Origin: a virus
Strand: one strand, 5' to 3'
DNA: 64,000 nucleotides
Virus record (IMG/VR): IMGVR_UViG_3300045988_087374
Positions 1,480 through 38,781 of this stretch are shown here, one piece after another. Position 1 is the first letter of the stretch, and each line of letters opens with the position of its first letter. Both the position numbers and the translations under genes were made by a program. The notes below the pieces were generated by a model, which was not told the origin of the DNA, searched no databases, and saw only the letters and a program-made list of their open reading frames with translations.

Positions 1480-4400
1480 TTGTGGGCAAACGGCGTAATG
1501 TTTGAGGATTCTGTATCTGGAGATAACAGTTTCGACATTGGATCCGCGATCATTAATGTACTGACTCTGAGTATCAATAACTTTGACGGTCGGTACTCAG
1601 ACTATGATTTCGACAGGGCAGAAGTAGTTTGCTATATCGGGCTTGCTCTTGATGATGGAACAACCGAAAAAGTCCGTATCTGCACGGCAACAGTTGTAGA
1701 ACAGCCGGAAATCGAAACCGTGACCATAGATCTTACGTGTGAAGATAATATGCGGAAATTCGATCGTGATTATTCTGAGAGCAAATTAATCTATCCGGCT
1801 ACAAGGGCACAGATCATCCGTGATGCGTGCAGTGTATGCGGTGTTACTCTCTTGACTACTTCGTTTGACCGGGATGATTATGTTGTACAGCAACGTCCTG
1901 CTGATGATGCACTGACTTTTCGACAGGTGTTGCAGTGGGTTGCTCAAATCGGCTGTCAGTGGTTGCGATGTGACGAATATGGAAGATTATGTGTGAAATG
2001 GTTCGATACCGGAAAGACAAATCCGCAGGAAATCAATGTCACGTATAATTTCACACCAAAACATACAGATGTCGTTATTACAGGAGTAAAAGTCACAGAG
2101 TACAGTGATTCTTCGGAAGATGTGGCAGGAAGTTATATTTCCGGCACAGAGGGATATGTGTTGGGAATTTCCGATAACAAGTTGATTCGCAAAGGTGATG
2201 GGGAAACGGTTGCATCCATAATTGCTGAAAAATGCGTGGGAATGGTATTTCGTCCGTTTGAATCTCAATGTCCTACGGACGTAGCTTTGGAAGCCGGAGA
2301 CACGATCACAATAGAAGACCGGAACGGAAAACTGTACAACACCTATCTCACAACAACTACATTGCATCCCGGCTCAGGACAGACAATTGCCTGTAATGCC
2401 AAGAGCGCAGCTAAAAATAGCAGCACCCGGTATAGTCAGGCAACACAGACGTATGTGGATGCATGGAACTTGGTAGAAAAAGAAAAAAGTGAAAGAAAAA
2501 AGGCTATTGAGAAATTGCAGGAATCTCTTTCTGTCGGAAGTGGACTCTTTGCGACTTACGTTCAACAGGAAGACGGAAGCACAATCTCATATTTTCACGA
2601 CAAGAGCACTCTGAAAGAATCAAAAAATGTGATCAAAATCACATCTGAGGCAATCGGCGTGTCAAATGATGGTGGTAAAACTTATCCATTTGGCTTCCAG
2701 CTGACCGGAACGATGATAACCAAACTTCTGTACGCCGAGGGAATCAATGCAGATTATATTGATACCGGTGCATTGACAGTAAAAGATAAAGACGGAGATA
2801 TTATCTTCCAGGTCAATATGGACACCAATACAGTATACATGAATCCGGACATTTTGATTATTGGCGACCAGACTCTGACTGAAAAGCTGAAAAGCATGGA
2901 CAACAATATTGCAGAAGCAAAAAACATGACCATGCAGTTGACCAACGACTACCAGAGCATCACTACGGATGCCGATGGAAATATCAGCGGAACATTTCCG
3001 ACTGTGACAACTACGGCTCAGGTTATGTACGGAACGAACGATGTGACCAATGATTGCACCTACACCATTACGAAATCCAATAACGTGACTGGCTCATGGA
3101 ATGATTCCACACATACTTATACCGTGACCGGATTGAGTGCAGATAACGGATGGGTGGACATCAAAGCCACTTATCTACGGGCATTGTCAATCACGAAGCG
3201 GTTTACGGTTGCGAAGTTAAAAGCTGGAAAGAATGGAATCAACGGATTAGATGGACTTCAAGGCGAAAAAGGCGAACAGGGAATTCCGGGCAAAGACGGC
3301 AAGGACGGAATCAATGGAGTAGATGGTAAAACATCATACTTTCACATCAAGTATAGTTCTGTAGCGAGTCCGACATCATCTAGCCAGATGACTGAAACTC
3401 CATCCACTTACATTGGCACTTACGTAGATTACGAACCGAATGACAGTACAGACCCAAAGAAATACACATGGTCAAAATTTGAGGGAACAGATGGCAAAGA
3501 TGGCATTGCCGGAACGAACGGAACAGATGGAAAGACATATTATCTGCACATTGCCTATGCGAACAGTGCTGATGGCAGGACTGGTTTTTCCGTTTCTGAT
3601 GGAACTAATAAGATATATATTGGTCAGTATACCGATACCACTAAAGCGGACTCTACTGACCCTACGAAATATACGTGGAGTAAGATCAAGGGTGAACCGG
3701 GAGTTGATGGCAAACCGGGAACTGATGGAAAGCCCGGTGCAGACGGTAAGCCGGGTAGAACCTACATTATTGAGCCGTCCTGTACGGTTCTAAAACGCGG
3801 AGCAGATAAGGTTATCAGCCCGAACTTCTTGGAGTTCAACGCGTATTACCGCGATGGCGACTCAGCTACCAGATATGCATATAGTGGTAGATTTGTAATT
3901 GAGGAAACCGCCGATGGAAACACATGGAAAACTATTTATACATCATCCGCGAACGAAAGCTCAGTCAAGCATTATCTGTATACTGTTTTGACAGATGGAA
4001 ATGGTCAAACCATAACAGGCGGCAACGGTACTACAGTTGGAATTCCACGCGATATAACCAACATCCGGTGCAAACTGTACGCGGCTGGCGGCACAACAGA
4101 TATGCTTGATATGCAGAGTGTTGCGGTAGTTATTGATGTTGATAATCTAACGCAGACGGACATCGTAAATATCCTTTCCAACAACGGAGCATGGAAAGGG
4201 TTGTACTACAAGAATGGTCAACTGTATATCAGTTTTAGTGCGGCGTTAGGCGGCGAACTGGCATTGGGCGGAGCGAATAATGGAAATGGTATCCTTGCGG
4301 TTTACAATGAGTCAGGTAATATATCATACAAATTAACTAGCAATGGAAATGTGTTCTATAACGAAACGGGGCAATGTACCGCCGCATTAGTAGATGGAAA

Positions 4401-5136
4401 GATGCTTTTTCCGGACACTCCTTTTACAGTTACGACAGGTCAGTGGTCTAGTACGCAAAAAGGTTTTATCTATGGCTCAAAAGGTCTGAACCGGTTCAGC
4501 GGCCGCGTATACGGAAATGCAGACGGTACAGTTAAATTTGATTATACCACAGAATCTTTTGACGGATATTACGAACCTATATTTCTTGAAGATGATGAAA
4601 TAAACGGCTTTTTTGATGTATTAAAAGCAACGAACTATTTAATAGCTAAAGAATTGATGGGATTACCGGATAGTGATGGAATAGTTAGGGTAAAAGTCAC
4701 AAGTGCTATGGACATTTCAAAAACACTCAGATTATACAATCTAACACACGTATCATCCGGTGGACATCTGGTTCTTTCACAAGACGGAGCAACAGTAGCT
4801 TATCTTTCCTCATCTTCCAAACGGTACAAAGATGTCCAGAAGAACCTTGAATGTATGGAACAATGGTATGATATAGAACCTGTTTGGGCGAAATACAAAG
4901 ACGGTTATCTCGCGGACGATGATATTTTTAACGGAAAAAATATGCCAATGTTTCTAGCAGAAGATGTGGAAAAACATATGCCGGAGGCGGCGGTATACAA
5001 AAACGGCAAAATTGAGGACTGGAATTATCGTGTGATGATTCCGGCAATGTTTGCAATGTTGAAACAGCAGAAATCAGAGATAGATTCTCTCAAACAAGAA
5101 CTGGGCGAAATTAAACAGCTTTTGAGAAAGGAGTGA
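1480..5136 (+). CDS. tail fibre / tail-associated protein with collagen-like segments and C-terminal peptidase-S74 intramolecular chaperone domain
   Basis: 1218-aa ORF from TTG. It has three Gly-X-Y runs and two ~52-aa tandem modules ending TWSK(F/I)(E/K)G. The C-terminal SSSSKRYKD motif plus coiled coil is typical of autoproteolytic S74 domains. The true start is probably GTG 1352 (see findings). Confidence 0.9.
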   Translation: MWANGVMFEDSVSGDNSFDIGSAIINVLTLSINNFDGRYSDYDFDRAEVVCYIGLALDDGTTEKVRICTATVVEQPEIETVTIDLTCEDNMRKFDRDYSESKLIYPATRAQIIRDACSVCGVTLLTTSFDRDDYVVQQRPADDALTFRQVLQWVAQIGCQWLRCDEYGRLCVKWFDTGKTNPQEINVTYNFTPKHTDVVITGVKVTEYSDSSEDVAGSYISGTEGYVLGISDNKLIRKGDGETVASIIAEKCVGMVFRPFESQCPTDVALEAGDTITIEDRNGKLYNTYLTTTTLHPGSGQTIACNAKSAAKNSSTRYSQATQTYVDAWNLVEKEKSERKKAIEKLQESLSVGSGLFATYVQQEDGSTISYFHDKSTLKESKNVIKITSEAIGVSNDGGKTYPFGFQLTGTMITKLLYAEGINADYIDTGALTVKDKDGDIIFQVNMDTNTVYMNPDILIIGDQTLTEKLKSMDNNIAEAKNMTMQLTNDYQSITTDADGNISGTFPTVTTTAQVMYGTNDVTNDCTYTITKSNNVTGSWNDSTHTYTVTGLSADNGWVDIKATYLRALSITKRFTVAKLKAGKNGINGLDGLQGEKGEQGIPGKDGKDGINGVDGKTSYFHIKYSSVASPTSSSQMTETPSTYIGTYVDYEPNDSTDPKKYTWSKFEGTDGKDGIAGTNGTDGKTYYLHIAYANSADGRTGFSVSDGTNKIYIGQYTDTTKADSTDPTKYTWSKIKGEPGVDGKPGTDGKPGADGKPGRTYIIEPSCTVLKRGADKVISPNFLEFNAYYRDGDSATRYAYSGRFVIEETADGNTWKTIYTSSANESSVKHYLYTVLTDGNGQTITGGNGTTVGIPRDITNIRCKLYAAGGTTDMLDMQSVAVVIDVDNLTQTDIVNILSNNGAWKGLYYKNGQLYISFSAALGGELALGGANNGNGILAVYNESGNISYKLTSNGNVFYNETGQCTAALVDGKMLFPDTPFTVTTGQWSSTQKGFIYGSKGLNRFSGRVYGNADGTVKFDYTTESFDGYYEPIFLEDDEINGFFDVLKATNYLIAKELMGLPDSDGIVRVKVTSAMDISKTLRLYNLTHVSSGGHLVLSQDGATVAYLSSSSKRYKDVQKNLECMEQWYDIEPVWAKYKDGYLADDDIFNGKNMPMFLAEDVEKHMPEAAVYKNGKIEDWNYRVMIPAMFAMLKQQKSEIDSLKQELGEIKQLLRKE
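3226..3759 (+). repeat. in-frame collagen-like (Gly-X-Y)n runs alternating with two tandem ~52-aa modules
   Basis: GKNGINGLDGLQGEKGEQGIPGKDGKDGINGVDGK (3226-3330), GTDGKDGIAGTNGTDGK (3484-3534), GEPGVDGKPGTDGKPGADGKPGR (3691-3759). The intervening modules are YFHIKYSS...YTWSKFEG and YYLHIAYAN...YTWSKIKG. Confidence 0.9.
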
Positions 5137-5578: not shown

Positions 5579-7213
5579 ATGGAAATCAAAGCAATTGATG
5601 TATCGTCAGATCAAGGCAAACCAGACTGGGAAAAAGTCGCAAAATCCGGCATAAAAGCAGCAATCCTCAGAGTCCATCAGAGATATGGCGTGGATTCTTC
5701 GTTTGAGCATAACTACAAAGGATGTAAACAGAACGGTATTCTGGCAGGGGCATACAAATACAGTTATGCCTTAACACCGGCACAAGCTGTTGAAGAAGCT
5801 GAGAACGTGATTGAAGTACTGAACGGACGCGGACTGGACTTTCCAGTATTCTACGATCTCGAATGGAAACAGCAGAGAAGCCTTGGGAAACAGGCAATCG
5901 AGAATATTGCGGTTTCATTCTTGACCAGAATGAAAAAAGCCGGTTATAAAGTTGGTATTTATTGCAATATGGACTGGTATAATAATTACCTGTCCGAAAA
6001 CCTCAAGAAATATGACCTCTGGCTTGCAAGATATGCGAATAATGACGATGGAACTATTCCGGATCGACTCAGACCGTCCGTTGGTATCGGCTGGCAGTAT
6101 TCAGAGAGTGGAAAAGTAGAAGGAATCAGTGCGAATGACGTTGATATGGACGTATTCTATACGGATTATCGGACGGAAAAGAAAGAAGAGGGAACAGTGA
6201 GTAAAACAAAATTACAGAAATTTACAGAACTCGGAGATTATTACGCCTCAAATGGTGGATATCTTGAAAAGAAAAGCAATGCTTATCTGGACGATTTTAA
6301 GAAGAATGCCGGATATAACAACTACACCAAATTTGCCCGTGATGTAAATTCTTGGGGGCAGCCGGGTTGTCAGGCTCAGCCGTGGTGTGCAGAGTATCAG
6401 TTCTGGAAACTGGTAAAAATCCTTGGAATCACCAGAGCATTAAAGATTATGGGCGGTGGTTTTTACAATTGCGTATCAATCACAAATCACGCTAAAGCAA
6501 ATGGAACATGGCATAAAGCACCAAAAGTAGGTGCGTTGATTATATTCCGTAACGGTTCCCATGTTGGCTCTGTTCGTAGGTTCAATGGCAGCATCGTTTA
6601 TACCAATGAAGGAAATACTTCCAGTGCTGCGGGGGTAGTCGCAAATGGTGGAGCTGTTCGCAATAAATCCTACGCTATCAACGATTCTGCAATTGATGGG
6701 TATGTTTGGATTGACTGGGGCGAAGAAAAAGCGTCTACAGCCGCTTGGAAAGCAACCGGAACGGCTACATCTACGGTGGACGACCTTTATATCCGTGAAA
6801 CACCGAATGGATATGTTCTTGGCGAGATTAACAAAAGCAACCGTGTTGAAATCAATGGTGAGAAGTCTGGAATGTGGACAAAAGTAAAAGTCGCAGGCAT
6901 TGGCATTGGTTGGGCTGCGACAAAATATCTTAAGATTGACGGAGTAGAGAATACAGCCACAACGATTTCTAAAAAGCAAGACAAGAATCAGAGGTTGTAC
7001 ACTGGACAGGTTACAGCTTCCAGCCTGAACGTCCGCACATGGGCTGGAACGGAATATCCGAACATCAAAAAATATCCGACATTGAACAAAGGAAACAAGG
7101 TTGACGTAATGAACTTCACTCAGAAAGCAAGTGATGGTAGTTCTTGGTATTACATCCGTATTGCCGGAAAATATTTCGGATTCGTTTACGCAAAACACAT
7201 TGGCAAAGTGTGA
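5579..7213 (+). CDS. modular endolysin: GH25 muramidase + CHAP-like peptidase + two SH3 cell-wall-binding repeats
   Basis: N-terminal IDVSSDQGKPDW...DLEW is GH25-like. The central PWCAEYQFW...GSHVGSV...NEGN is a Cys/His CHAP-like signature. Two C-terminal SH3-like repeats are present (LYIRETPNG..., LNVRTWAGTEYP...). SD AAGGAGG lies upstream. Confidence 0.9.
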   Translation: MEIKAIDVSSDQGKPDWEKVAKSGIKAAILRVHQRYGVDSSFEHNYKGCKQNGILAGAYKYSYALTPAQAVEEAENVIEVLNGRGLDFPVFYDLEWKQQRSLGKQAIENIAVSFLTRMKKAGYKVGIYCNMDWYNNYLSENLKKYDLWLARYANNDDGTIPDRLRPSVGIGWQYSESGKVEGISANDVDMDVFYTDYRTEKKEEGTVSKTKLQKFTELGDYYASNGGYLEKKSNAYLDDFKKNAGYNNYTKFARDVNSWGQPGCQAQPWCAEYQFWKLVKILGITRALKIMGGGFYNCVSITNHAKANGTWHKAPKVGALIIFRNGSHVGSVRRFNGSIVYTNEGNTSSAAGVVANGGAVRNKSYAINDSAIDGYVWIDWGEEKASTAAWKATGTATSTVDDLYIRETPNGYVLGEINKSNRVEINGEKSGMWTKVKVAGIGIGWAATKYLKIDGVENTATTISKKQDKNQRLYTGQVTASSLNVRTWAGTEYPNIKKYPTLNKGNKVDVMNFTQKASDGSSWYYIRIAGKYFGFVYAKHIGKV

Positions 7214-8267: not shown

Positions 8268-9530
8268 TTACTGCAATTTAATTAATACTTTTTCATCAGT
8301 CCAGACGTTGGCAGTATACTCCAATTCTACAGACTGAGAATCAATTGGTATACTGTAATATGTAGAAAAAGAAACACTTCTTCCAGAGGAAAGATTAGTA
8401 TTTATGAAACCTCTGTTATCCAAACCATATGTTTGTTCACAAGTTTGATTATCAGCATAGCACTTAAAGTCATAGATACTTGCGTACTTGTCTGTGTTTC
8501 CAACATTATTGTATGTAAAAGATACCTTTGCATACTTCATTCCATCGGCAGGCGTATAAAGCCCGTATTCGTCTTCGTAATCCTGAAAATCAGTGTCTGC
8601 ATCATCTACAGTGATTTGCAACCCGTTAACTTCAAATGTAGATCCGACAGTTACATAATCAGGTGCAGATTCTTCAACTGGCTCAGGAGTAGGCATATCA
8701 GAAGAATTATTGATTTCTTCTGATACTTCATTTGCAATATCCTGTATTTCTTGCTCGTATGCATTTTGTTCCGTCGGAGAAGGAGTGCTTGCACTGTCTG
8801 AATTAAGCCCTCCATTACTCAAAACAAATACTGCCAATACGGGGAAAATGATTGACAATGCAATTCTTGTACCTTTTTTGAAGTGTTTGTATTTCCACAT
8901 AGTGAACAAACCGATGGGCCAGAATATCAAAATCATAAATACTGTAAATCCGGTAGATGCAAACACAGAATTCTTCTTTTCTTCTTCTTGAAATTGCTGA
9001 TACGAGAATGAACTAGACTGATTGCTAGTATTATTTTGGACTTTTTGGATATTTACATTGGTTTCACCAGATTTGAATTTGTCAGCATGGTTTCTAGCAT
9101 ATTCATTCACAAGATACCAATCGGAAACAAAATCTTTTTTAAAATACTTGTCTGCTATGTTTACTAAAAAATCTTTAGTTATTTCATATTTTTCAGAGTT
9201 AGCATTTACACATATTTTAAAGGAATCCTTGTAGTTTGGGGTAGAAAATGCAATTTTAAGTTGGTTGCGACCAAAATCATCTGGCTCTTCTTTTGAATAA
9301 TTCAAAACAAAATCATCAACAGGAGATTCCATAATTTGATTGTGATTATAGAAAACTTTGATTGTTTCTGACGTTGCTTGAATATACATAGAATCGTTTA
9401 TCTCTACAGTATATTCTTTTGGTTTTTCTTTTTCGGGCTGTCCTTTGATTAATGGAAAACCACAGTTTGGACAACTGGCAGCCTTGTCACTTATTTCTTT
9501 CCCACATTCAGGACATTTAATTATAGCCAT
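8268..9530 (-). CDS. membrane protein with N-terminal zinc ribbon and C-terminal DUF4352-like Ig-fold domain
   Basis: MAIIKCPECGKEISDKAASCPNCG zinc ribbon, a central two-TM stretch (FTVFMILIFWPIGLF..., ALSIIFPVLAVFVL), and a C-terminal GSTFEVNGLQITVDD...YAKVSFTYNNVGN. The start is moved to ATG 9530 (AGGAGGA SD); the upstream track codons cover a TATAAT. Confidence 0.8.
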   Translation of the reverse strand: MAIIKCPECGKEISDKAASCPNCGFPLIKGQPEKEKPKEYTVEINDSMYIQATSETIKVFYNHNQIMESPVDDFVLNYSKEEPDDFGRNQLKIAFSTPNYKDSFKICVNANSEKYEITKDFLVNIADKYFKKDFVSDWYLVNEYARNHADKFKSGETNVNIQKVQNNTSNQSSSFSYQQFQEEEKKNSVFASTGFTVFMILIFWPIGLFTMWKYKHFKKGTRIALSIIFPVLAVFVLSNGGLNSDSASTPSPTEQNAYEQEIQDIANEVSEEINNSSDMPTPEPVEESAPDYVTVGSTFEVNGLQITVDDADTDFQDYEDEYGLYTPADGMKYAKVSFTYNNVGNTDKYASIYDFKCYADNQTCEQTYGLDNRGFINTNLSSGRSVSFSTYYSIPIDSQSVELEYTANVWTDEKVLIKLQ

Positions 9531-9715
9531 ATCTTTTCCTCCTTGGTAAAATTTGCATATATTATACCGCAAGATTCAACAATATCATAGTCAAAACCGA
9601 AATATTTTTCATATTTTTATCCATCAAAAATGCAGTTTTATCGTTTTGCCCGATTAATTTGCACAAAAAGTGGTATAACTAAGTACATAAATTATAGACT
9701 AAAGAGGTATATATT

Positions 9716-11406: not shown

Positions 11407-11548
11407 GTTCTCACCTCCTTTATCTAACTGCAAGTATATAATAATACAAGAATCTAACTAAGTCAAACTTTTTGTGAGATTTCTATTGACAAATCTAACT
11501 ATGTGAGATATTATAATAACACAAGTAATACAGAAAGGAGCGAGAGGA
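11407..11548. promoter_or_regulatory. immunity switch region with repeated operators and divergent promoters
   Basis: ATCTAACT at 11422, 11452 and 11493. TGTGAGAT at 11473 and 11502. TTGACA at 11486-11491 and TATAAT at 11512-11517. Confidence 0.6.
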
Positions 11549-17275: not shown

Positions 17276-17872
17276 ATGAAAGAAATGAAAGTTAGATTAA
17301 CATTTTTAGAGGAAGTTCTGGGAACTGCAAATGCAGAAAGAGATATTCACGAGAAGTTCATTGCATCTAAAGCACCAGATGCACCTTCTAGAGAACAGGA
17401 AGTTGAAGCCCTTGGAGTTGAAGAAGTTGTCGAAAAAGGAAGAACAGTGTTCCCGAAAGATGAAAACGGCAATCCGTTCTTATGGGACTATCAGATCAGA
17501 GGATTTTTCAAATCAGCTGCACAGGCAGGTTCCTACGTGGGTGGAACAAAGAAACTCGCAGCATACAAAAAGAAAATCGACTTACTGGTATTTGTGAATG
17601 AACGAAAGATTCCATTTATTCTTCCAGAAGGTACAGGACTTTCTGATTGCCAGAGACCATTGAGAGCACAGACAGCACAGGGCGAAAGAATTTCTTTAGC
17701 AGACAGTGAAACCGTACCGGCAGGTTCGACAGTAGAATTCACAATCAAAGTACTGGACGATTCACTGATGAAATATGTAATCGACTGGCTTGATTATGGG
17801 CAGTTCAATGGTATTGGTCAGTGGCGAAACTCAGGTAAAGGCCGTTTCAAATGGACTGAAATCACGAAATAA
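17276..17872 (+). CDS. hypothetical protein of the recombination module (RAMP-like glycine-rich C-terminus, or a PD-(D/E)XK-like nuclease)
   Basis: 198 aa. VRLTFLEEVLGT, IRGFFKSAAQ, IDLLVFVNERK, and C-terminal GIGQWRNSGKGRFKW. Confidence 0.8.
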   Translation: MKEMKVRLTFLEEVLGTANAERDIHEKFIASKAPDAPSREQEVEALGVEEVVEKGRTVFPKDENGNPFLWDYQIRGFFKSAAQAGSYVGGTKKLAAYKKKIDLLVFVNERKIPFILPEGTGLSDCQRPLRAQTAQGERISLADSETVPAGSTVEFTIKVLDDSLMKYVIDWLDYGQFNGIGQWRNSGKGRFKWTEITK

Positions 17873-18177
17873 GCTACGGCATGGCTGATTGTAGTTATGA
17901 TAGGTAAAGCAAATGCGTGGAATGGCCGGGTATTGATCTGTTTCGGCGAAGCGTAGCTTAGCAAGGTAATGCAAGGGAATAGTCCTGAAAGGCGATGATG
18001 TGTGTTGTATAGGCATAGTGCAGAAAAGTCATGAACAGCAAAGACGGAGCATAGAATGGAGTAGTAAAGCATTGGAGAAGCAAAGAATGGAAAAGTAATG
18101 AAATGCAAAGGCGAAGTATGGTGCTGAACAGAAATGCGTCGGAAGAATAATTATAATTATTGAAAAGGAGAATTAAA
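17873..18177 (+). other. purine-rich ORF-free leader R2, paralogous to R1
   Basis: Shares the ordered blocks AATGAAATGCA (18097), GTGCTG (18121), GAAATGCGT (18131) and the AAAAGGAGAA SD with R1. Confidence 0.5.
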
Positions 18178-19281
18178 ATGGCAGAAAACACACAGGTAGC
18201 AAATTTTAACACACAGCTTTCCTATTACACAAATCGTTATGTCGATTTAATGGAAAGAGATTTAACTTCAAGAGGAATGGAATTTGATTCCTACTCAAAA
18301 GATTGCGTAGTAGCGGCAATGGGATCTATTTTCCAGATGGTGCATGAGAGTGGCGTGAACTTTGAAGCAATCAACGGCTCTAATCTTAAATTTATCCTGA
18401 GTAAAGTTGCAGCGTTGAAACTGAATGCAAATGCACAGCCGAGAGAATGTTATTTCCAGATTAGAAATGTAAATGTAGCAGCGAAAGGGCAGAAACCTCA
18501 GTGGGAGAAGAAAGTCGAATTTGCGATTGAGGGTGATGGAAACGATGCTCTTGTAAGTAGATATGGTGTCAATGTGGCTAAAGTATTTCCATATTGGAAA
18601 GTCAGAGAGGGCGACAAATATACGCCGCCAAGACATAGAGGTGTGGAGATTACACCGCCGGAATGGGAAGAATCCGGAATTGGAAAAGTGGTTCGCGTCG
18701 TATATCCGATTCAGTACAAGGACGGACATATTGAATATCTTTCTTGCGAAAGAGCAGATGTACTGAAGAATCTTGCAGCACATATCAAGAATAATCTTCA
18801 GAATGAAACGTTTGGGATTTGTGCAGACAGATACAAAGCTACAGATGCACAGAAAGCTCAGATTGAAGCAAAGAAAAAAGAAATCATGAAAAAGGTTGCT
18901 GATATTGGGGAACTGGAAGCAATTATTGATTGTGAGGAATTAAGACCGTACATTTCCCCGTCTTACTACGAAACACAGTCCAGAGAATCCATGATTATCC
19001 GTAAAATGCGTAACAACATTATGAAGTCTATTCCTAAGAAATGGGATAATTCGGTGCAGGCATATGAATATAACACGTTGGACGCTACATACAGGGAAGT
19101 ACAGGAAGAGATCGAACAGAATGCCAACAAAGAGGAATTTATTCCAGAACCAATGGCAATCGAGGAACAGCCGAAACAGCCGACAGTTGCAGAAGTTGTA
19201 CATTCAGCTGAGAAAGAACCAGTTCCGGCAGCAGTCGTGGAACCGGAAATTCCAGAATTCATGAAACAGGAGGAAATGTGA
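18178..19281 (+). CDS. recT: RecT-family single-strand annealing protein (putative)
   Basis: Start moved to MAENTQ (AAAAGGAG SD). RECYFQIRN...AIEGDGNDALVSRYGV...VREGDKYT resembles the RecT core. Acidic C-terminal tail. Confidence 0.7.
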   Translation: MAENTQVANFNTQLSYYTNRYVDLMERDLTSRGMEFDSYSKDCVVAAMGSIFQMVHESGVNFEAINGSNLKFILSKVAALKLNANAQPRECYFQIRNVNVAAKGQKPQWEKKVEFAIEGDGNDALVSRYGVNVAKVFPYWKVREGDKYTPPRHRGVEITPPEWEESGIGKVVRVVYPIQYKDGHIEYLSCERADVLKNLAAHIKNNLQNETFGICADRYKATDAQKAQIEAKKKEIMKKVADIGELEAIIDCEELRPYISPSYYETQSRESMIIRKMRNNIMKSIPKKWDNSVQAYEYNTLDATYREVQEEIEQNANKEEFIPEPMAIEEQPKQPTVAEVVHSAEKEPVPAAVVEPEIPEFMKQEEM

Positions 19282-19282
19282 T

Positions 19283-19888
19283 ATGAACAATAAAGAAATT
19301 TTACAGAAAGCAAAGGAACTGGTTGAACTTCTGGAAAAGCAGGAAGAAACTGAAAAGATTGAGTTGTCAACACTGAAACGAGGAGAAGTATTTCAGACCA
19401 CTGGAAAGCGTAAATACAAGGTTCTGGAACAGTATGGAGATACAACGAAAATTATTTCACTTGATCTGGTGAAAAAAAATGTGGAATTCGGAGACAACAC
19501 GGATTACAACAAATCAAATGTAAAGAAGTTATGCGACACAGAAATCTTAAAGGATTTTGAGGAAGAATTTGGTGCTGAAAGCATCGAAGAGCATACGGTA
19601 GATATTATTACCGTGGATGGACAGAAAGTCGGAAGTGTAAAATGTAAAATCCGTCCAATTACATTTGATGAAGCACGAGAATACACAGATATTACACCGA
19701 ACAATGATCTGAACGACTGGTATTGGACGTTGTCGCCATGGTCGACAGAAGAACGTGGTTGGAGTAAAAGCTTGGCCGTTGTTTCCCCTTCGGGCTATAT
19801 CTTCAGCGTCAATTACGTCAACGCTAATGGTGTTCGCCCAGTTTGTATCTTAAAATCTAATATCTTTGTATCTAAGGTGGAGGAATGA
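19283..19888 (+). CDS. DGR target protein 1 (DUF6273-like, C-type-lectin-fold variable C-terminus)
   Basis: 201 aa. WYWTLSPWS...VVSPSGYIFSVNYVNANGVRPVCI carries VR1. No signal peptide. Confidence 0.85.
   Translation: MNNKEILQKAKELVELLEKQEETEKIELSTLKRGEVFQTTGKRKYKVLEQYGDTTKIISLDLVKKNVEFGDNTDYNKSNVKKLCDTEILKDFEEEFGAESIEEHTVDIITVDGQKVGSVKCKIRPITFDEAREYTDITPNNDLNDWYWTLSPWSTEERGWSKSLAVVSPSGYIFSVNYVNANGVRPVCILKSNIFVSKVEE
19776..19840 (+). repeat. DGR variable region VR1
   Basis: 65 nt. 10 mismatches to TR, all at TR adenines. Confidence 0.9.
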
Positions 19889-20490
19889 TTATGAAGAAAA
19901 ATCTGAAATATTTCGAGAATGAATTATCTCGGTTGAATAAAGAATTTGCAGATTATAAGAAAAAATATATCGGAACACCGGAAATTGGAAAAGTTATTGA
20001 ACTTGCTGGAATGGATTGGCTGATTCTGGATAAGACAGAAAAAGGATATTTTGCCATTTTGAATGGATTTGATGAAAAAGAAAGAACATTTGATTCAACT
20101 TCAAATAACTGGATTACAAGTAAACTGAGAAATGAGTTAAATGCTCGTTTTCTTAAAAAAATTACGGACGAGCTTGGGAAAGATGCAGTTATTGAGTTTG
20201 ATCGAGATTTACTTTCTATGGACGGCCAGACGGAATACGGACATTGTAAAGATAAGATTTCATTTTTGACGGTTGATGAATACCGAAAATACAGAAAATT
20301 ACTTACAAATATGGATAAATGGTGGTGGCTGCTTACTCCATGGAGTACACCAGTAAATGATTTCAGCACAACAATTACCGTTGTTTCCCCTTCGGGCTTT
20401 ATCTACAACGACGGTTACGACTACGTAAATGGTGTTCGCCCAGTTTGTATCTTTTCTTCTTCAATCTTTGAATCAGGAAGTGATGATTAA
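19885..20490 (+). CDS. DGR target protein 2 (paralogue of target 1)
   Basis: 201 aa. WWWLLTPWS...VVSPSGFIYNDGYDYVNGVRPVCI carries VR2. ATGA overlap with target 1. Confidence 0.85.
   Translation: MIMKKNLKYFENELSRLNKEFADYKKKYIGTPEIGKVIELAGMDWLILDKTEKGYFAILNGFDEKERTFDSTSNNWITSKLRNELNARFLKKITDELGKDAVIEFDRDLLSMDGQTEYGHCKDKISFLTVDEYRKYRKLLTNMDKWWWLLTPWSTPVNDFSTTITVVSPSGFIYNDGYDYVNGVRPVCIFSSSIFESGSDD
20378..20442 (+). repeat. DGR variable region VR2
   Basis: 65 nt. 9 mismatches to TR, all at TR adenines. Confidence 0.9.
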
Positions 20491-20861
20491 TGGCAAATGA
20501 AGACTTAAAGGTAATAACAAAGGCTAAGCAGCTCGCAAAGCATACATTAATAGTTACCAGCAATTGCAGACGATATCCAAAGAAATACAGGTTTTCGTTG
20601 GTAGATAAGATGCAAAATAAAGCATTAGAAATCTATGAGTTGCTTTTTGAAGCCAACCGAACTGATCTGAAAGATTATAAAAGAGAACGGTTAGAACTGC
20701 AAACAAAAGCTATTACTTATTGCGATGAGTTGATGTACTTTATAGAACTTTCATATGAATTAGGAATTATCAATTCCGGTGGAATGGAAGCATGGTCGCA
20801 AATGGTAAAAGATATAAAGTACATGACTATTTCATGGAGAACAAAAGACAGAAAAAGATAA
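20490..20861 (+). CDS. avd: accessory variability determinant (Avd, four-helix-bundle / 23S rRNA IVS family)
   Basis: 123 aa, basic and helical (KAKQLAKHTLIVTSNCRRYPKKYRFSLVDKMQNKALEIYELLFEAN). Sits between the target and TR. Confidence 0.8.
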   Translation: MANEDLKVITKAKQLAKHTLIVTSNCRRYPKKYRFSLVDKMQNKALEIYELLFEANRTDLKDYKRERLELQTKAITYCDELMYFIELSYELGIINSGGMEAWSQMVKDIKYMTISWRTKDRKR

Positions 20862-20887
20862 TTTTCACAGGTTATGCACTGCGAATA

Positions 20888-20952
20888 CCGTTGTTTCCCC
20901 TTCGGGCAATATCAACAACAACAATTACAACAACGAAAATGGTGTTCGCCCA
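20888..20952 (+). repeat. DGR template repeat (TR)
   Basis: CCGTTGTTTCCCCTTCGGGC-AATATCAACAACAACAATTACAACAACGAAAAT-GGTGTTCGCCCA in the avd-RT intergenic region. Confidence 0.9.
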
Positions 20953-21056
20953 ACATGGATCACATGCAGACAGAGTAAGCGTAAAGCTGAAATCAGAAAA
21001 GATACAAGCAAATGCATAACCTTTTCGCAATGGACAAATATAAAGGAACAAAATAA

Positions 21057-22076
21057 ATGGATAAAGAAATTGTTGCAAATTTTGAGAATTTATATCGTTC
21101 TTACAAAAAGGTTAAGAGCGGCAAGAGATTTAATTCAGGTACTGCAAGATTTTCTAATTTGTCTCTTGAAGGCCTTCATCTCTTGAAAGAACAATTGGAA
21201 AGTCAAACGTATACCATAAATCCGTATAATAAATTTCAAATTCATGAGCCAAAAGAGCGAACGATAGAATCATGTGCATTTAAGGACAAAGTAGTGCAGA
21301 GATGCTTTTCTGATTACATTCTGACACCGAAACTTGAAAATATCCTGATTAAATGGAACACTGCCGGGCAGCAAGGAAAAGGACAACACATGGCAATGGA
21401 CGGGTTAAGAAATCAAATGTTGGATTTCTATAAAAGAAATGGAATGAATAGTTGGATTGTAAAATGTGATATTCACAAATACTTTTATTGCATAGACCAT
21501 GAAATCATGAAAGATGTTTTGGATTATTACTTTGATGATGATTTTACAGTCTGGTTGAACCATTTGTTTATTGACAGTACAGGTAATCCCGGGCTTCCAT
21601 TAGGAAATCAGGTAAATCAGAAGTACGCATTGTTGCTTTTACATTCACTGGATCAGATGATAACGATTGAATTTGGAAATCCATATTACGGACGATACAA
21701 CGATGATTTTTATGTGATTTGTAAAACGAAAGAAGATGCCAGAGAAATTCTCGAAGCAATCCGAATGATGATTGAAAGTCTTAGACTGGAATTAAACCCT
21801 AAATCACAAATTGTACCATTTCGCATGGGATTGTGTTATCTGGGCTTTCATCATTACGTGACTGATGAAGGAAAATATATCAGAAAATTGCGTGGTGATA
21901 AGAAAAGAAAAACACAGAGAAAAATCCGAAGATGGGTACGGGCAGTGAATGACGGGAAGATGTCGATGGAAAAATTCCATGAAAAATACGGATCATGCAA
22001 GAATCATATGCTTCATGGAAATTGCACCAAACTATGTCATAGTATGGATTTAGAAATTGAAAGGAGAATGAAGTGA
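21057..22076 (+). CDS. DGR reverse transcriptase
   Basis: 339 aa. LPLGNQVNQ is a variant of the DGR-specific (I/L)GxxxSQ motif. Catalytic RYNDDF box. Confidence 0.9.
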   Translation: MDKEIVANFENLYRSYKKVKSGKRFNSGTARFSNLSLEGLHLLKEQLESQTYTINPYNKFQIHEPKERTIESCAFKDKVVQRCFSDYILTPKLENILIKWNTAGQQGKGQHMAMDGLRNQMLDFYKRNGMNSWIVKCDIHKYFYCIDHEIMKDVLDYYFDDDFTVWLNHLFIDSTGNPGLPLGNQVNQKYALLLLHSLDQMITIEFGNPYYGRYNDDFYVICKTKEDAREILEAIRMMIESLRLELNPKSQIVPFRMGLCYLGFHHYVTDEGKYIRKLRGDKKRKTQRKIRRWVRAVNDGKMSMEKFHEKYGSCKNHMLHGNCTKLCHSMDLEIERRMK

Positions 22077-23112: not shown

Positions 23113-23880
23113 TTGTTCATGCGAGTAATTTCAACAGGAAGTACTAAAGGAAATTGTTACGCTTTGCAGGCAAGTACAGGCGAGATTATTCTTCTTGACT
23201 GCGGATGCAATTACAAGAAAATCCTTAGAGGGATTGACTACCAGATAAGCAATGTTGAAGCTGTACTTCTTTCACATGGGCACGGAGATCACACCGAAGC
23301 ATTCAAGGAAATAATGAATGCAGGCATTCAGATTTACGCCAATGACGAGACCGTTGAGGACATGAACGTCCGAACAGGCGAACTGATGAAAGGCGTTCCA
23401 GAAAGATACCCATTTAGAGTTGGTTCGTTTATCGTGACTCCATTTGAGCTGCCGCATACGACATATGATAAAGAAGCAAAAATACTTATTCCGTGTCCAA
23501 ACTACGGCTATCTGGTACAGCATGAAGAAATGGGAAAACTCCTGTATATGACCGATTTCGAATTCTGCAACTATAGTTTCCGCAGAATGCAAGTTGAGCA
23601 TCTGGTAATTGAGTGCAATTACTGCGAAGAATTGGTGAATAGGTCAGAAGCTAACTACAGGCACCGAATAAAAGGGCATTGTTCTTTGTCAACTTGCAAG
23701 CAATTCATTAAGCAAAACCGCACAGAATCACTTCGGACGGTAACACTGGTACATTTGAGTGGTCAAGCGTCAGATGCCCGTAAAATACAGCAAGAAATAC
23801 AGGAAGTCACAGGAAACAATGTTCTGGTTCAGATCGGACGGGCTGGACTGGAAGTCGACTTGAATTTGTGCCCGTTCTGA
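23113..23880 (+). CDS. metallo-beta-lactamase-fold hydrolase (candidate recombination nuclease)
   Basis: HGHGDH motif. AGAGGTG SD lies 8 nt before TTG. Confidence 0.8.
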   Translation: MFMRVISTGSTKGNCYALQASTGEIILLDCGCNYKKILRGIDYQISNVEAVLLSHGHGDHTEAFKEIMNAGIQIYANDETVEDMNVRTGELMKGVPERYPFRVGSFIVTPFELPHTTYDKEAKILIPCPNYGYLVQHEEMGKLLYMTDFEFCNYSFRRMQVEHLVIECNYCEELVNRSEANYRHRIKGHCSLSTCKQFIKQNRTESLRTVTLVHLSGQASDARKIQQEIQEVTGNNVLVQIGRAGLEVDLNLCPF

Positions 23881-37233: not shown

Positions 37234-37354
37234 GGGTGATCGCATGGCAATCATAACACTTGACGGTAAACCGGTTGACATTGAAAAAATCGAACTGCCG
37301 GAGGAAATTGTGGAGTTAATCATGACGTGTCTGGATTGACCAAATGAATAATGT

Positions 37355-37401
37355 GGTGTAGAATGTGTCGTAACATGATATGTGCGGCACATTTTCTACA
37401 C
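37355..37401. promoter_or_regulatory. imperfect 46-bp palindrome upstream of the integrase (attP or operator candidate)
   Basis: GTGTAGAATGTG-20 nt (with nested ACAT-GAT-ATGT)-CACATTTTCTACAC. Confidence 0.35.
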
Positions 37402-37416
37402 AAAGGAGGAAAACGC

Positions 37417-38781
37417 ATGGAATGTGTTGCATATTTGCGTGTATCTACAGAGAAACAGGCAGAGGAAGGAAACGGACTGGACAGTCAGCGGCGTGATATT
37501 GAGAACTACTGCCGGAAAAACGAACTGATAATCAAGAATTGGTATGAAGACGATGGTTTTACTGGCTCGAACATGAACCGACCGGGATTGCAAAGACTTA
37601 TCAATGATTGCACCAGAAAACGAATCAAATGCGTAGTAGCATTCAAACTTGACCGATTATCACGAAGCATGGTAGACGGAATCTATCTGATCGAACGAAT
37701 ATTTATCCCAAATGGTGTGGAATTCAAGTGCGTCCATGACAGTGTGAGTTACGACAGCCCAATGGAACAGGCATATACACAGATGATGGCAGTGTTCGCT
37801 CAGCTTGATAAAAACACAATGCTGCTTAGAATGCGAGGCGGAATGCTGGAGCGCGTGAAGCAGGGATTCTGGATGGGCGGCGGAAACTTGCCCTATTGCT
37901 ATGACTACGACAGGGAACAGGGGATTTTAGTTCCCATATCGGAACGAGCGGAGCAGGCAAGGCAGGCATTGGACTTGTACTTGTCGGGATATTCGGATGC
38001 CAAAATCAGAGATATTTTAGGCTACACAAGCGAAAGGGTTGTCAGGAACATTTTGACAAGTCCGGTCAATATCGGGATGATTCCGTATAAGGGAAGTGTC
38101 TATCGAGGAAAGCACAAACCGATTTTTGAAGCAGAGAAATTTGAGGCAGCTCAAGAAATGAGGAAATCTCGCCGACAGCACAAACTTCAGAACATCAATC
38201 AGCCGGCACACTTGCTTACAGGACTATGCTATTGTGGTGTGTGCGGATGTAAGATGAGGTACCAGAAATGGACGCATGGAAAGCATAAGATATACTGCTG
38301 TTCGCGGAATGCGGGATGTTCACATTTGCCTAATTACAATCCTAACTGCGATAATTCTCTTGAATGGGCAGATGATATCGAGAAGCAGGTGGAAGAACAG
38401 ATTCTTAAAATCTCGCTCAATCTATCTTCGTACAAGCCCAAGGAAAAAGAAACCAGACTGGAAATATTGCAAAAGCAGTATGACAAAGAGAAAACCAAAC
38501 TAAAACGGCTATATTCGTTGTACGCTGATGGGAACGATACAGTTCTGGAAATGATACAGGAATCCGAAAGCAAGTTGTCAGAAATAAAAGAACAGATTGA
38601 CAGAGAAACAGAGAATACAGAGTACACGCAAAAAAAAGAATACGTCTACGAAAAAATAAAAAGGCTCGCCGACGTTTGGGATCACATCGACAAGCCAGAC
38701 AAAAACAAGATACTAAAGAGTATAATCTCAAAAATTGTGATAGTCAATGGAAACGTTGAAATACAGTTAAAGAGATTTTAG
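37417..38781 (+). CDS. int: large serine recombinase (integrase)
   Basis: Start at MECVAYLRVSTEKQ (AAAGGAGGAAAA SD). Resolvase catalytic domain, recombinase domain, CYCGVCGC zinc ribbon and C-terminal coiled coil. Confidence 0.9.
   Translation: MECVAYLRVSTEKQAEEGNGLDSQRRDIENYCRKNELIIKNWYEDDGFTGSNMNRPGLQRLINDCTRKRIKCVVAFKLDRLSRSMVDGIYLIERIFIPNGVEFKCVHDSVSYDSPMEQAYTQMMAVFAQLDKNTMLLRMRGGMLERVKQGFWMGGGNLPYCYDYDREQGILVPISERAEQARQALDLYLSGYSDAKIRDILGYTSERVVRNILTSPVNIGMIPYKGSVYRGKHKPIFEAEKFEAAQEMRKSRRQHKLQNINQPAHLLTGLCYCGVCGCKMRYQKWTHGKHKIYCCSRNAGCSHLPNYNPNCDNSLEWADDIEKQVEEQILKISLNLSSYKPKEKETRLEILQKQYDKEKTKLKRLYSLYADGNDTVLEMIQESESKLSEIKEQIDRETENTEYTQKKEYVYEKIKRLADVWDHIDKPDKNKILKSIISKIVIVNGNVEIQLKRF

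Follow-up and report, generated by a model that had tools for sequence, protein, structure and literature searches.

The window analysed here is a 64,000-nucleotide stretch of viral DNA (IMG/VR record IMGVR_UViG_3300045988_087374), and its positions 19283 to 22076 hold a diversity-generating retroelement (DGR) in which a template repeat (TR) between an avd gene and a reverse transcriptase (RT) gene is matched by two variable repeats (VR1 and VR2) at the 3' ends of two adjacent genes, called T1 and T2 below. That the DGR is complete had been proposed in a first-pass annotation of this DNA and is borne out: Avd, TR, RT, two VRs and the sequence pattern of an initiation of mutagenic homing site (IMH) at the VRs versus IMH* at the TR are all present. 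The cassette comprises the following features.

19283-19888, + strand: T1, 201 amino acids, an N-terminal helix and then a DUF6273 domain
19776-19840, + strand: VR1, at the 3' end of T1, with its variable core at 19796-19828
19829-19849, + strand: G+C-rich 3' boundary of VR1 (GGTGTTCGCCCA) and IMH-like flank GTTTGTATC, read from the sequence
19885-20490, + strand: T2, 201 amino acids (199 if the start is 19891), DUF6273 domain
20378-20442, + strand: VR2, at the 3' end of T2, with its variable core at 20398-20430
20431-20451, + strand: G+C-rich 3' boundary of VR2 and IMH-like flank GTTTGTATC, read from the sequence
20490-20861, + strand: avd, 123 amino acids, basic, pI 9.4
20869-21022, + strand: putative DGR RNA (TR and spacer), RNA fold z-score -1.8
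20888-20952, + strand: TR, 65 nt, non-coding, between avd and RT; in the target frame VVSPSG-NINNNNYNNEN-GVRP
20941-20961, + strand: 3' boundary of the TR and IMH*-like flank ACATGGATC, read from the sequence
21057-22076, + strand: DGR reverse transcriptase, 339 amino acids, motifs LPLGNQVNQ and YNDD

Scripted re-alignment reproduced what had been claimed for the three repeats, namely their coordinates, their identical ends and the restriction of their differences to adenines. TR, VR1 and VR2 are identical over a 20-nt 5' part (CCGTTGTTTCCCCTTCGGGC) and a 12-nt 3' part (GGTGTTCGCCCA), and within the 33-nt core VR1 has 10 mismatches to the TR and VR2 has 9; all 19 of these 19 differences fall on TR adenines, with every C, G and T unchanged. 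Adenine makes up 20 of the 33 core bases, and the chance of finding 19 of 19 differences on it is about 7e-5 in the core, or about 5e-10 when reckoned over all 65 nt. The same three-copy family is returned by an independent repeat finder, and a search of the 64-kb window for a further VR gave none, even with 10 mismatches tolerated at non-adenine positions; nor was any large or structural target of the TR found for the window phage. The core reads as eight AAY codons together with ATC, TAC and GAA, from which adenine mutagenesis can make 2.05e11 amino-acid combinations, a stop codon being impossible.

Directly after the shared GGTGTTCGCCCA the VRs continue with GTTTGTATC and the TR with ACATGGATC, as had been described, and the mismatches between these flanks lie at non-adenine positions. 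The VR flank GTTTGTATC is also found 3' of the VRs in related loci, relatives carry the TR-flank variants ACCTGTATC and ACCTGCATC, and the IMH versus IMH* pattern is kept among them; by analogy with known DGRs the pattern would fit a role in setting the direction of transfer. At the other edge of the repeat the TR alleles CTATTG and CCGTTG (positions 2-3; loci L001, L009 and L012 compared with the window) are often, not always, common to the VRs of the same genome. Such shared 5'-edge alleles would fit a model in which non-adenine polymorphisms of the TR are transferred as well and the 5' crossover varies in position.

The open reading frames (ORFs) T1, avd and RT, the last with its two motifs, stand as first mapped, and the start of T2 is the point of amendment: most gene calls in the databases use the ATG at 19891, which lies at a canonical distance after GGAGG and gives 199 amino acids. 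The genes are tightly joined: the stop of a recT-like gene at 19281 is followed by the T1 start at 19283, the T1 stop overlaps the ATG at 19885, and the TAA of T2 overlaps the avd ATG at 20490. T1 and T2 are paralogues with 40% identity over 121 amino acids, and both exceed the gathering cut-off of 23.5 bits for Pfam PF19789 (DUF6273), with 26.9 bits for T1 and 30.9 for T2; PF19789 is also precomputed on most T2 homologues. Both match phrog_9958 (E 1.6e-24 for T1 and 6.7e-47 for T2), and the match of the targets to phrog_10993 is partial and covers the lectin-like part only. Outside the VRs the dN/dS is 0.12 for T1 and 0.21 for T2, and these scaffolds are under purifying selection. Neither protein has a signal-peptide-like N-terminus or a hydrophobic segment, as had been noted; the argument drawn from this carries no weight, because virion proteins such as Mtd have no signal peptide either. 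At 201 amino acids, with a helix (residues 2-29) and a single domain, T1 and T2 do not contain the beta-prism and beta-sandwich attachment domains of the Mtd type, and they have no immunoglobulin-like (Ig) or Fn3 domains of the kind seen in tentaclin and Hoc-like proteins; their VRs lie at the 3' end.

A first AlphaFold2 (AF2) model, from a shallow alignment, was discarded at a mean confidence (pLDDT) of 41. Alignment depth was limited by the flooding of profile searches with DGR variants of single lineages, and a second run with 92 sequences reached pLDDT 73.6 and pTM 0.71. It predicts a 28-residue N-terminal helix (2-29) followed by a mixed alpha/beta domain in which the VR is modelled as a beta-hairpin (169-174 and 177-184). 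The best viral matches of this model in Foldseek are DUF6273 proteins (E 4e-5), and the best PDB match is 9qa6, the N-terminal DUF6273 domain of the Thomasclavelia ramosa IgA peptidase (probability 0.90, E 0.11), which is also at the top of the sequence-profile search (E 6.6e-4).

The avd product matches phrog_3206, 'Avd protein of DGR' (E 8.3e-24), and its Pfam matches, 23S_rRNA_IVP and bAvd, are both below cut-off; its 123 amino acids and basic charge fit a four-helix bundle. The RT matches phrog_1423 (E 3.6e-88) and Pfam RVT_1 (E 7e-12), and tblastn aligns 95-97% of its length with the RTs of nd12, nd4, FP_Brigit, Lelie and FP_Toutatis at 34-40% identity, with Bordetella phage records also among the matches. 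Homology to the RTs of published DGR phages points to an RT of the DGR type.

For the putative DGR RNA, a 10-bp stem (20869-20878 with 21013-21022) would enclose the TR and most of the spacer, and a hairpin CATG-GATCA-CATG at 20954-20966 would stand directly 3' of the TR. In an alignment fold across relatives the closing stem is invariant or changes only in G-U-compatible ways, and the pair 20955/20965 switches between A-U and C-G in 5 of 13 sequences; this is suggestive of both being structural elements of the RNA. The spacer between TR and RT (20961-21065, + strand) was also tried as an RT-2 RNA (RF03077), at 22.3 bits against a cut-off of 40 (E 0.04), and that candidate was dropped, since a shorter stretch did not reproduce the match and no related locus reaches any Rfam gathering score.

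Variation and loss among relatives

Activity in natural populations was assessed at the protein and the DNA level. A search of 5.8 billion proteins gave 3623 relatives of T2, and variation was read from the best 120 of these, which are 93-100% identical. Among those 120 the high-entropy variation is confined to residues 172-182, with only minor polymorphism at a few sites elsewhere, and the residue sets observed (I/V/F at ATC, Y/C/F at TAC and V/E/G/A/D at GAA) match the prediction for adenine mutagenesis. At the DNA level 80 syntenic IMG/VR loci on phage contigs, many of 77-82 kb, were compared. The TR is nearly invariant among related loci and the VRs are variable, with 658 of 696 TR-VR differences at TR adenines; 18 of the 38 exceptions lie at repeat position 2, at the extreme 5' edge, where incomplete cDNA replacement is expected. 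In natural populations variation is essentially limited to the 11 codons for which the A-rich core of the TR is the template.

The close relatives also separate the targets from the retroelement. T1 and T2 are kept in all 77 close relatives that can be assessed downstream, of which 51 have both avd and RT, 23 have neither and 3 have part of them; within this module the target pair is core and avd-TR-RT is dispensable. Target copies in DGR-less relatives are under the same purifying selection, as judged by dN/dS, and their VRs show more drift, with 112 of 533 differences at non-A positions. Among the syntenic loci without the DGR are L003, L004, L006, L029 and L047; L065, L067 and L068 keep an RT fragment only, and in some of the DGR-less loci T2 is separated from the next conserved ORF by about 600 nt of other sequence. 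In one record, IMGVR_UViG_3300045988_060245 (L032/L105), the layout is T2-Avd-T2-Avd-RT with four repeat copies, which could be a real tandem duplication of target and avd or an assembly artefact from VR heterogeneity. When the cassette was compared by megablast with 50,697 phage records nothing was returned, and only protein-level searches were successful.

Genome setting and a census of small DUF6273 targets

The cassette lies, as first annotated, between RecT and a metallo-beta-lactamase (MBL) fold hydrolase, inside a long unidirectional block of early and DNA-metabolism genes. On the + strand the order of this block is Ant, an SSB-like (single-stranded DNA-binding) protein, an SbcC-like ATPase, RecT, the DGR, two unknown ORFs, the MBL hydrolase, SSB and a C5-methyltransferase; later come a DnaD-like loader and a serine integrase, and finally the large terminase subunit TerL (54958), the portal and the major capsid protein. 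The surrounding features are these.

1480-5136: tail protein
5579-7213: endolysin
11466-11438, - strand: leftward promoter-like site, divergent from the 11486 site (consensus scan only)
11486-11514, + strand: candidate early rightward promoter TTGACA-17-TATTAT (consensus scan only)
18160-19281, + strand: RecT-like single-strand annealing protein, phrog_2185 (E 8.7e-119), its stop 2 nt before the T1 start
23113-23880, + strand: MBL-fold hydrolase, Lactamase_B_2 (E 2.3e-12) and phrog_392 (E 7e-59), marking the end of the recombination block

The site at 11486 is the only strong promoter-like site upstream of the DGR, and the consensus scan gave no terminator-like site on the + strand between the two; the total of promoter-like sites in the region is not above that in shuffled sequence. 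The window reads as a circularly permuted or prophage-derived siphovirus-like genome, and the phage would be a temperate siphovirus-like one of gut Clostridia. Relatives of its TerL at 76-77% identity occur in metagenome-assembled genomes (MAGs) of Blautia, and others in Lachnospiraceae MAGs, and from these TerL relatives the host is probably Lachnospiraceae or Blautia-like; no T2 relative was found among GTDB species representatives. The phage encodes a conventional tail protein of 1218 amino acids with collagen and BppU-like domains, in which there is no VR.

Some neighbours deserve mention in their own right. A large serine recombinase (37351-38781, + strand; phrog_95, E 2e-106) lies in the middle of the replication block, away from the lysogeny switch, and a 434-residue ORF near the lysin (8268-9572, - strand) has only short N-terminal PHROG matches without an assigned function. 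Between the SbcC-like gene and RecT lies a 198-residue ORF (17276-17872) that is 93-96% identical where relatives carry it and has no Pfam, PHROG, NCBIfam or PADLOC match. PADLOC returns only generic RT matches at the locus and weak LmuB/JetC-like matches for the SbcC-like ATPase; nothing marks the locus as a defence system. The region was also considered as a counter-defence island, for which the match of the MBL hydrolase to anti-Pycsar Apyc1 (PF23023; 16.9 bits, cut-off 50) is insufficient; the orthologue of this hydrolase in L155 bears the same weak match.

How general the setting of such targets is was addressed by a census. Exhaustive phmmer over 1.84 billion cluster representatives gave 1253 clusters related to T2, and the 150 listed of these are mostly of 170-270 amino acids, with a few two-domain fusions. 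The homologues P0122, P0144, P0148, P0218 and P0387 have 355-411 amino acids, and the first four, each with two matched stretches, look like a fused tandem pair. With two divergent representatives as queries 104 further IMG/VR loci were collected and labelled with a marker panel, and in 95 of them a small DUF6273 gene was recognised; for P0163 no relative was found in IMG/VR. A tandem target pair is present in 73 of the 95 loci, avd and RT follow directly downstream of the targets in 50, and a DNA-metabolism marker lies no more than five genes away in 73, while the small panel of structural and lysis markers found none within five genes in any (0/95). The commonest gene order is SbcC-T1-T2-Avd-RT-x-RecT-x-MBL-x-SSB. 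Where a DGR is present, the local TR is matched by both genes of the tandem pair in 45 of 50 loci; 282 of the differences fall on A and 35 on other bases. Spot checks with PHROG on 20 directly adjoining genes that the panel had left unlabelled, taken from the most divergent loci, brought up no structural protein; those with an annotation are DNA methyltransferases, a replication initiator, an SbcCD fusion, primase, ATP- and NAD-dependent ligases, a ParB-like protein and a tRNA-His guanylyltransferase, and the rest have no annotated function.

Published phages extend the pattern. FP_Toutatis gp24, a small DUF6273 protein, is encoded among methyltransferases, a regulator and a replication initiator, and nd4 tgt2 adjoins a Pol III alpha-like gene, upstream of SSB and DnaC. 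FP_Brigit gp06, annotated as hypothetical, is the first gene after the cro-like regulators and stands just before exonucleases, RecT and a replisome organiser. It carries a remote VR of that phage's TR, with 7 differences over 73 nt, all at adenines on inspection of the alignment (L084:3948-4559 and L086:7300-7800), and FP_Brigit therefore has two targets, gp06 and the Hoc-like gp60; the avd-TR-RT genes and the Hoc-like target lie about 41 kb from gp06, beside tail genes. In the publications consulted no comment was found on the location of the genes for the small targets. Across the few independent lineages sampled (the window phage, P0167-like phages of about 55 kb, a heterogeneous P0153 set, Brigit-like phages, Toutatis/Lelie and nd4) the early or replication position of small DUF6273 targets is general.

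Competing explanations and what they would mean

The locus as a whole is very probably a functional DGR with two tandem targets in the early block of a temperate siphovirus-like phage of gut Clostridia. By analogy with BPP-1, a complex of RT and Avd would reverse-transcribe the TR-spacer RNA with random nucleotides placed opposite template adenines, the cDNA would replace either VR, and the shared G+C-rich 3' boundary together with the IMH or IMH* flank would set the direction of transfer; each target could in this way present a surface hairpin in as many as about 2e11 forms free of stop codons. If the three-copy repeat were due to plain paralogy or gene conversion, biased in composition by chance and involving no retroelement, a reading to which we give next to no credence, C-terminal similarity between the paralogues T1 and T2 would be expected, but the third copy is non-coding and lies between avd and RT, the differences keep to TR adenines both here and in relatives, and the TR is invariant with the VRs variable, by all of which that explanation is effectively refuted. 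That the DGR of this particular genome is a recent relic, its VR differences recording past activity, is distinctly improbable: avd-TR-RT has indeed been lost with diversified VRs kept in the 23 close relatives, and the VRs of Lelie were without heterogeneity in sequencing reads (PMC11792537), but here three ORFs are intact, all 20 core adenines are present in the TR, the parts of the VRs flanking the core are identical to it with zero non-adenine differences in the window, and the DGR-less relatives are far richer in non-A differences.

What the two targets do is a separate matter, and context gives roughly an even chance to the view that T1 and T2 are not virion receptor-binding proteins and are made together with the recombination and replication genes, as diversifiable binders that would act within the infected cell or once it has lysed, with conflict between phage and host or between phages as the most plausible setting. 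The one real argument for such a non-canonical role is gene position, and it is strengthened because the position of the targets among DNA-metabolism genes is conserved across many lineages; a non-virion function is plausible and unproven. It is possible, if somewhat doubtful, that T1 and T2 are instead virion-associated receptor-binding or adhesion proteins, functionally analogous to Mtd or to accessory decoration proteins, whose genes merely lie outside the late module, with the DGR serving host-range or mucus-adherence switching, which is the assumption in the literature on the tgt2 of nd4 and nd12. DUF6273 is contained in virion-type tentaclin and Hoc-like proteins and in proteins with tail-fibre N-termini, the partial phrog_10993 match points the same way, the authors of PMC10743442 propose a receptor-binding protein function for tgt2, and the modelled N-terminal helix (2-29) could dock or oligomerise. 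Set against this are the lack of structural or lysis markers near the targets, which holds for FP_Brigit, FP_Toutatis and nd4 as it does for the 95 census loci, the lack in T1 and T2 of the Mtd attachment domains and the tentaclin Ig domains, and the conventional 1218-residue tail protein that the phage already encodes and that is not a VR carrier. A rather improbable third account reads the cassette position as mechanism, such that its place in the SbcC-RecT-MBL-SSB module would link cDNA synthesis with replication forks and with the single-strand-annealing machinery of the phage, and these would integrate the cDNA into the VRs as a natural counterpart of 'DGRec'. RecT abuts T1 in the window phage, the census order given above keeps RecT close to the DGR in another lineage, and BPP-1 cDNA in E. 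coli gave no mutagenesis without CspRecT, being integrated only with RecT supplied, in work that states the natural recombination step not to be understood (bioRxiv 10.1101/2025.03.24.644984; 10.64898/2026.07.21.739853). Yet in FP_Brigit, FP_Toutatis and nd4 the avd-RT genes lie in the late region beside the large target and only the small target is early, so that the conserved feature is the position of the target and not that of the machinery; many loci adjoin methyltransferases, primase or ligase instead of RecT, and RecT would act in trans anyway.

Several results weigh against a functional DGR with intracellular targets, or against parts of that reading. DGR activity appears at the level of the lineage rather than of this genome copy, and the timing of T1 and T2 expression would follow from gene order. 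Incorporation of T1 and T2 into virions is compatible with all results here. The census loci come from two query proteins and are mutually related, and the structural marker panel was small. The profile check of Avd and RT proposed in the first-pass annotation succeeded with PHROG and not with NCBIfam, where the avd product reaches 41.8 bits against NF033474 (E 1.1e-10; cut-off 80) and the RT has no DGR-RT match; its best NCBIfam match is a group II intron RT at 101.9 bits against a cut-off of 300, far under threshold, and is not read as contrary evidence. The RT motif is GNQVNQ and differs from the GxxxSQ that is canonical for DGR RTs. DNA folding found no hairpin or cruciform 3' of VR1 or VR2 above shuffled sequence, which is unlike BPP-1. 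The AF2 model is moderate only, with residues 144-180 of low confidence and values there below 50, and where a C-type-lectin fold had been looked for, Foldseek with this model returned DUF6273 proteins and none of Mtd, TvpA, formylglycine-generating enzyme (FGE) or other classical C-type-lectin structures.

The usual reading of phage DGRs makes them switches of host range or adhesion that act on virion proteins. In the present case a whole family of small targets sits consistently among DNA-metabolism genes in several gut-phage lineages, and purifying selection on it persists after loss of the retroelement. Should T1 and T2 work intracellularly, phages would have in targeted hypermutation a tool for conflicts within the cell, and the DUF6273 family would be a natural source of compact, evolvable binder scaffolds. 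Tentatively, the approximately 1250 clusters (50% identity) of small DUF6273 DGR targets could be hypervariable, antibody-like binders in the infected cell, produced along with the replication and recombination genes and perhaps never parts of virions. A possible role, for which Gam of the lambda red operon offers an analogy, would be to neutralise variable host proteins that serve in defence or are nucleases; if true, this would make the module the first counter-defence system in phages to be diversified by a DGR. Compatible with this, the tight linkage to RecT, SSB and SbcC could reflect use of the phage's single-strand-annealing pathway for cDNA integration, and its recurrence is a testable lead on how DGR cDNA enters its target. 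If T1 and T2 are virion components after all, this is an ordinary DGR with an odd gene position.

Comparison with known systems

The cassette shares with the BPP-1 system (mtd-avd-TR-brt) its set of components and their order of target, avd, TR and RT. Common to both are also the VR at the 3' end of the target, an AAY-rich and stop-free TR, adenine-specific differences, a homologous RT, and a G+C-rich 3' boundary followed by flanks that differ between VR and TR. Unlike BPP-1, which has one target, the window phage has two in tandem, each a 201-residue protein of a helix and a DUF6273 domain without the beta-prism and beta-sandwich of Mtd; its TR has 65 nt, compared with 134 nt in BPP-1, no VR-proximal hairpin or cruciform was detected, and the cassette lies in a recombination/replication block and not beside tail genes.

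The only solved structure indicated by both the family profile and the AF2 model is that of the N-terminal DUF6273 domain of the T. ramosa IgA peptidase (PDB 9qa6; PMC12402451), which shares the WW..TP ... GVRP motif region. It differs in being a much larger domain (residues 31-322) of a secreted, sortase-anchored bacterial protease and not a DGR target.

Nor is a non-structural role for a DGR target a new proposal. In the Quimbyvirus DGR (Benler et al. 2021, PMC8008677) such a phage target, engaged in phage-host conflict, has already been put forward, and like the present one that is a phage DGR with two targets, one of them argued to be non-structural from its gene neighbourhood. Unlike the window phage, Quimbyvirus has a Bacteroides host, a frameshifted RT and one target that is still structural, with the non-structural one encoded on the opposite strand, within a defence/counter-defence island. 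For the tentaclin of Mushuvirus a secreted, non-virion role has been proposed (bioRxiv 10.64898/2026.05.08.723808).

The closest parallels are the small single-domain targets already described. The first-pass annotation had listed three points as unusual, of which two have precedent and cannot be upheld as such: two-target DGRs are published for nd4, nd12, Lelie, CP11 and Toutatisvirus, and single-domain DUF6273 targets are known from the tgt2 of nd4 and nd12, which shares one TR with a second target (PMC10743442), from Lelie and CP11 (PMC11792537) and from Toutatisvirus (bioRxiv 10.1101/2024.10.15.618418), besides the non-structural target proposed for Quimbyvirus. The small targets of nd4, nd12, Lelie, CP11 and FP_Toutatis align with T2 over 79-88% of its length at about 28-31% identity (tblastn) and have, like T2, a single DUF6273 domain flanked by short helices and a C-terminal VR; in these phages too one TR serves two VRs, and the context is early or replicative where inspected. 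Their small target is, however, remote from avd-TR-RT (17 kb in Toutatisvirus, 41 kb in FP_Brigit), and the second target, beside the RT, is a large tentaclin or Hoc-like protein. The kind of DGR and the DUF6273 target family are thus already known, and there is no new kind of system on present evidence. What is new is the arrangement, widespread and apparently undescribed, in which the machinery, unlike in the nd4/Lelie type, adjoins two small paralogous targets in tandem, inside a recombination/replication block and without a structural target.

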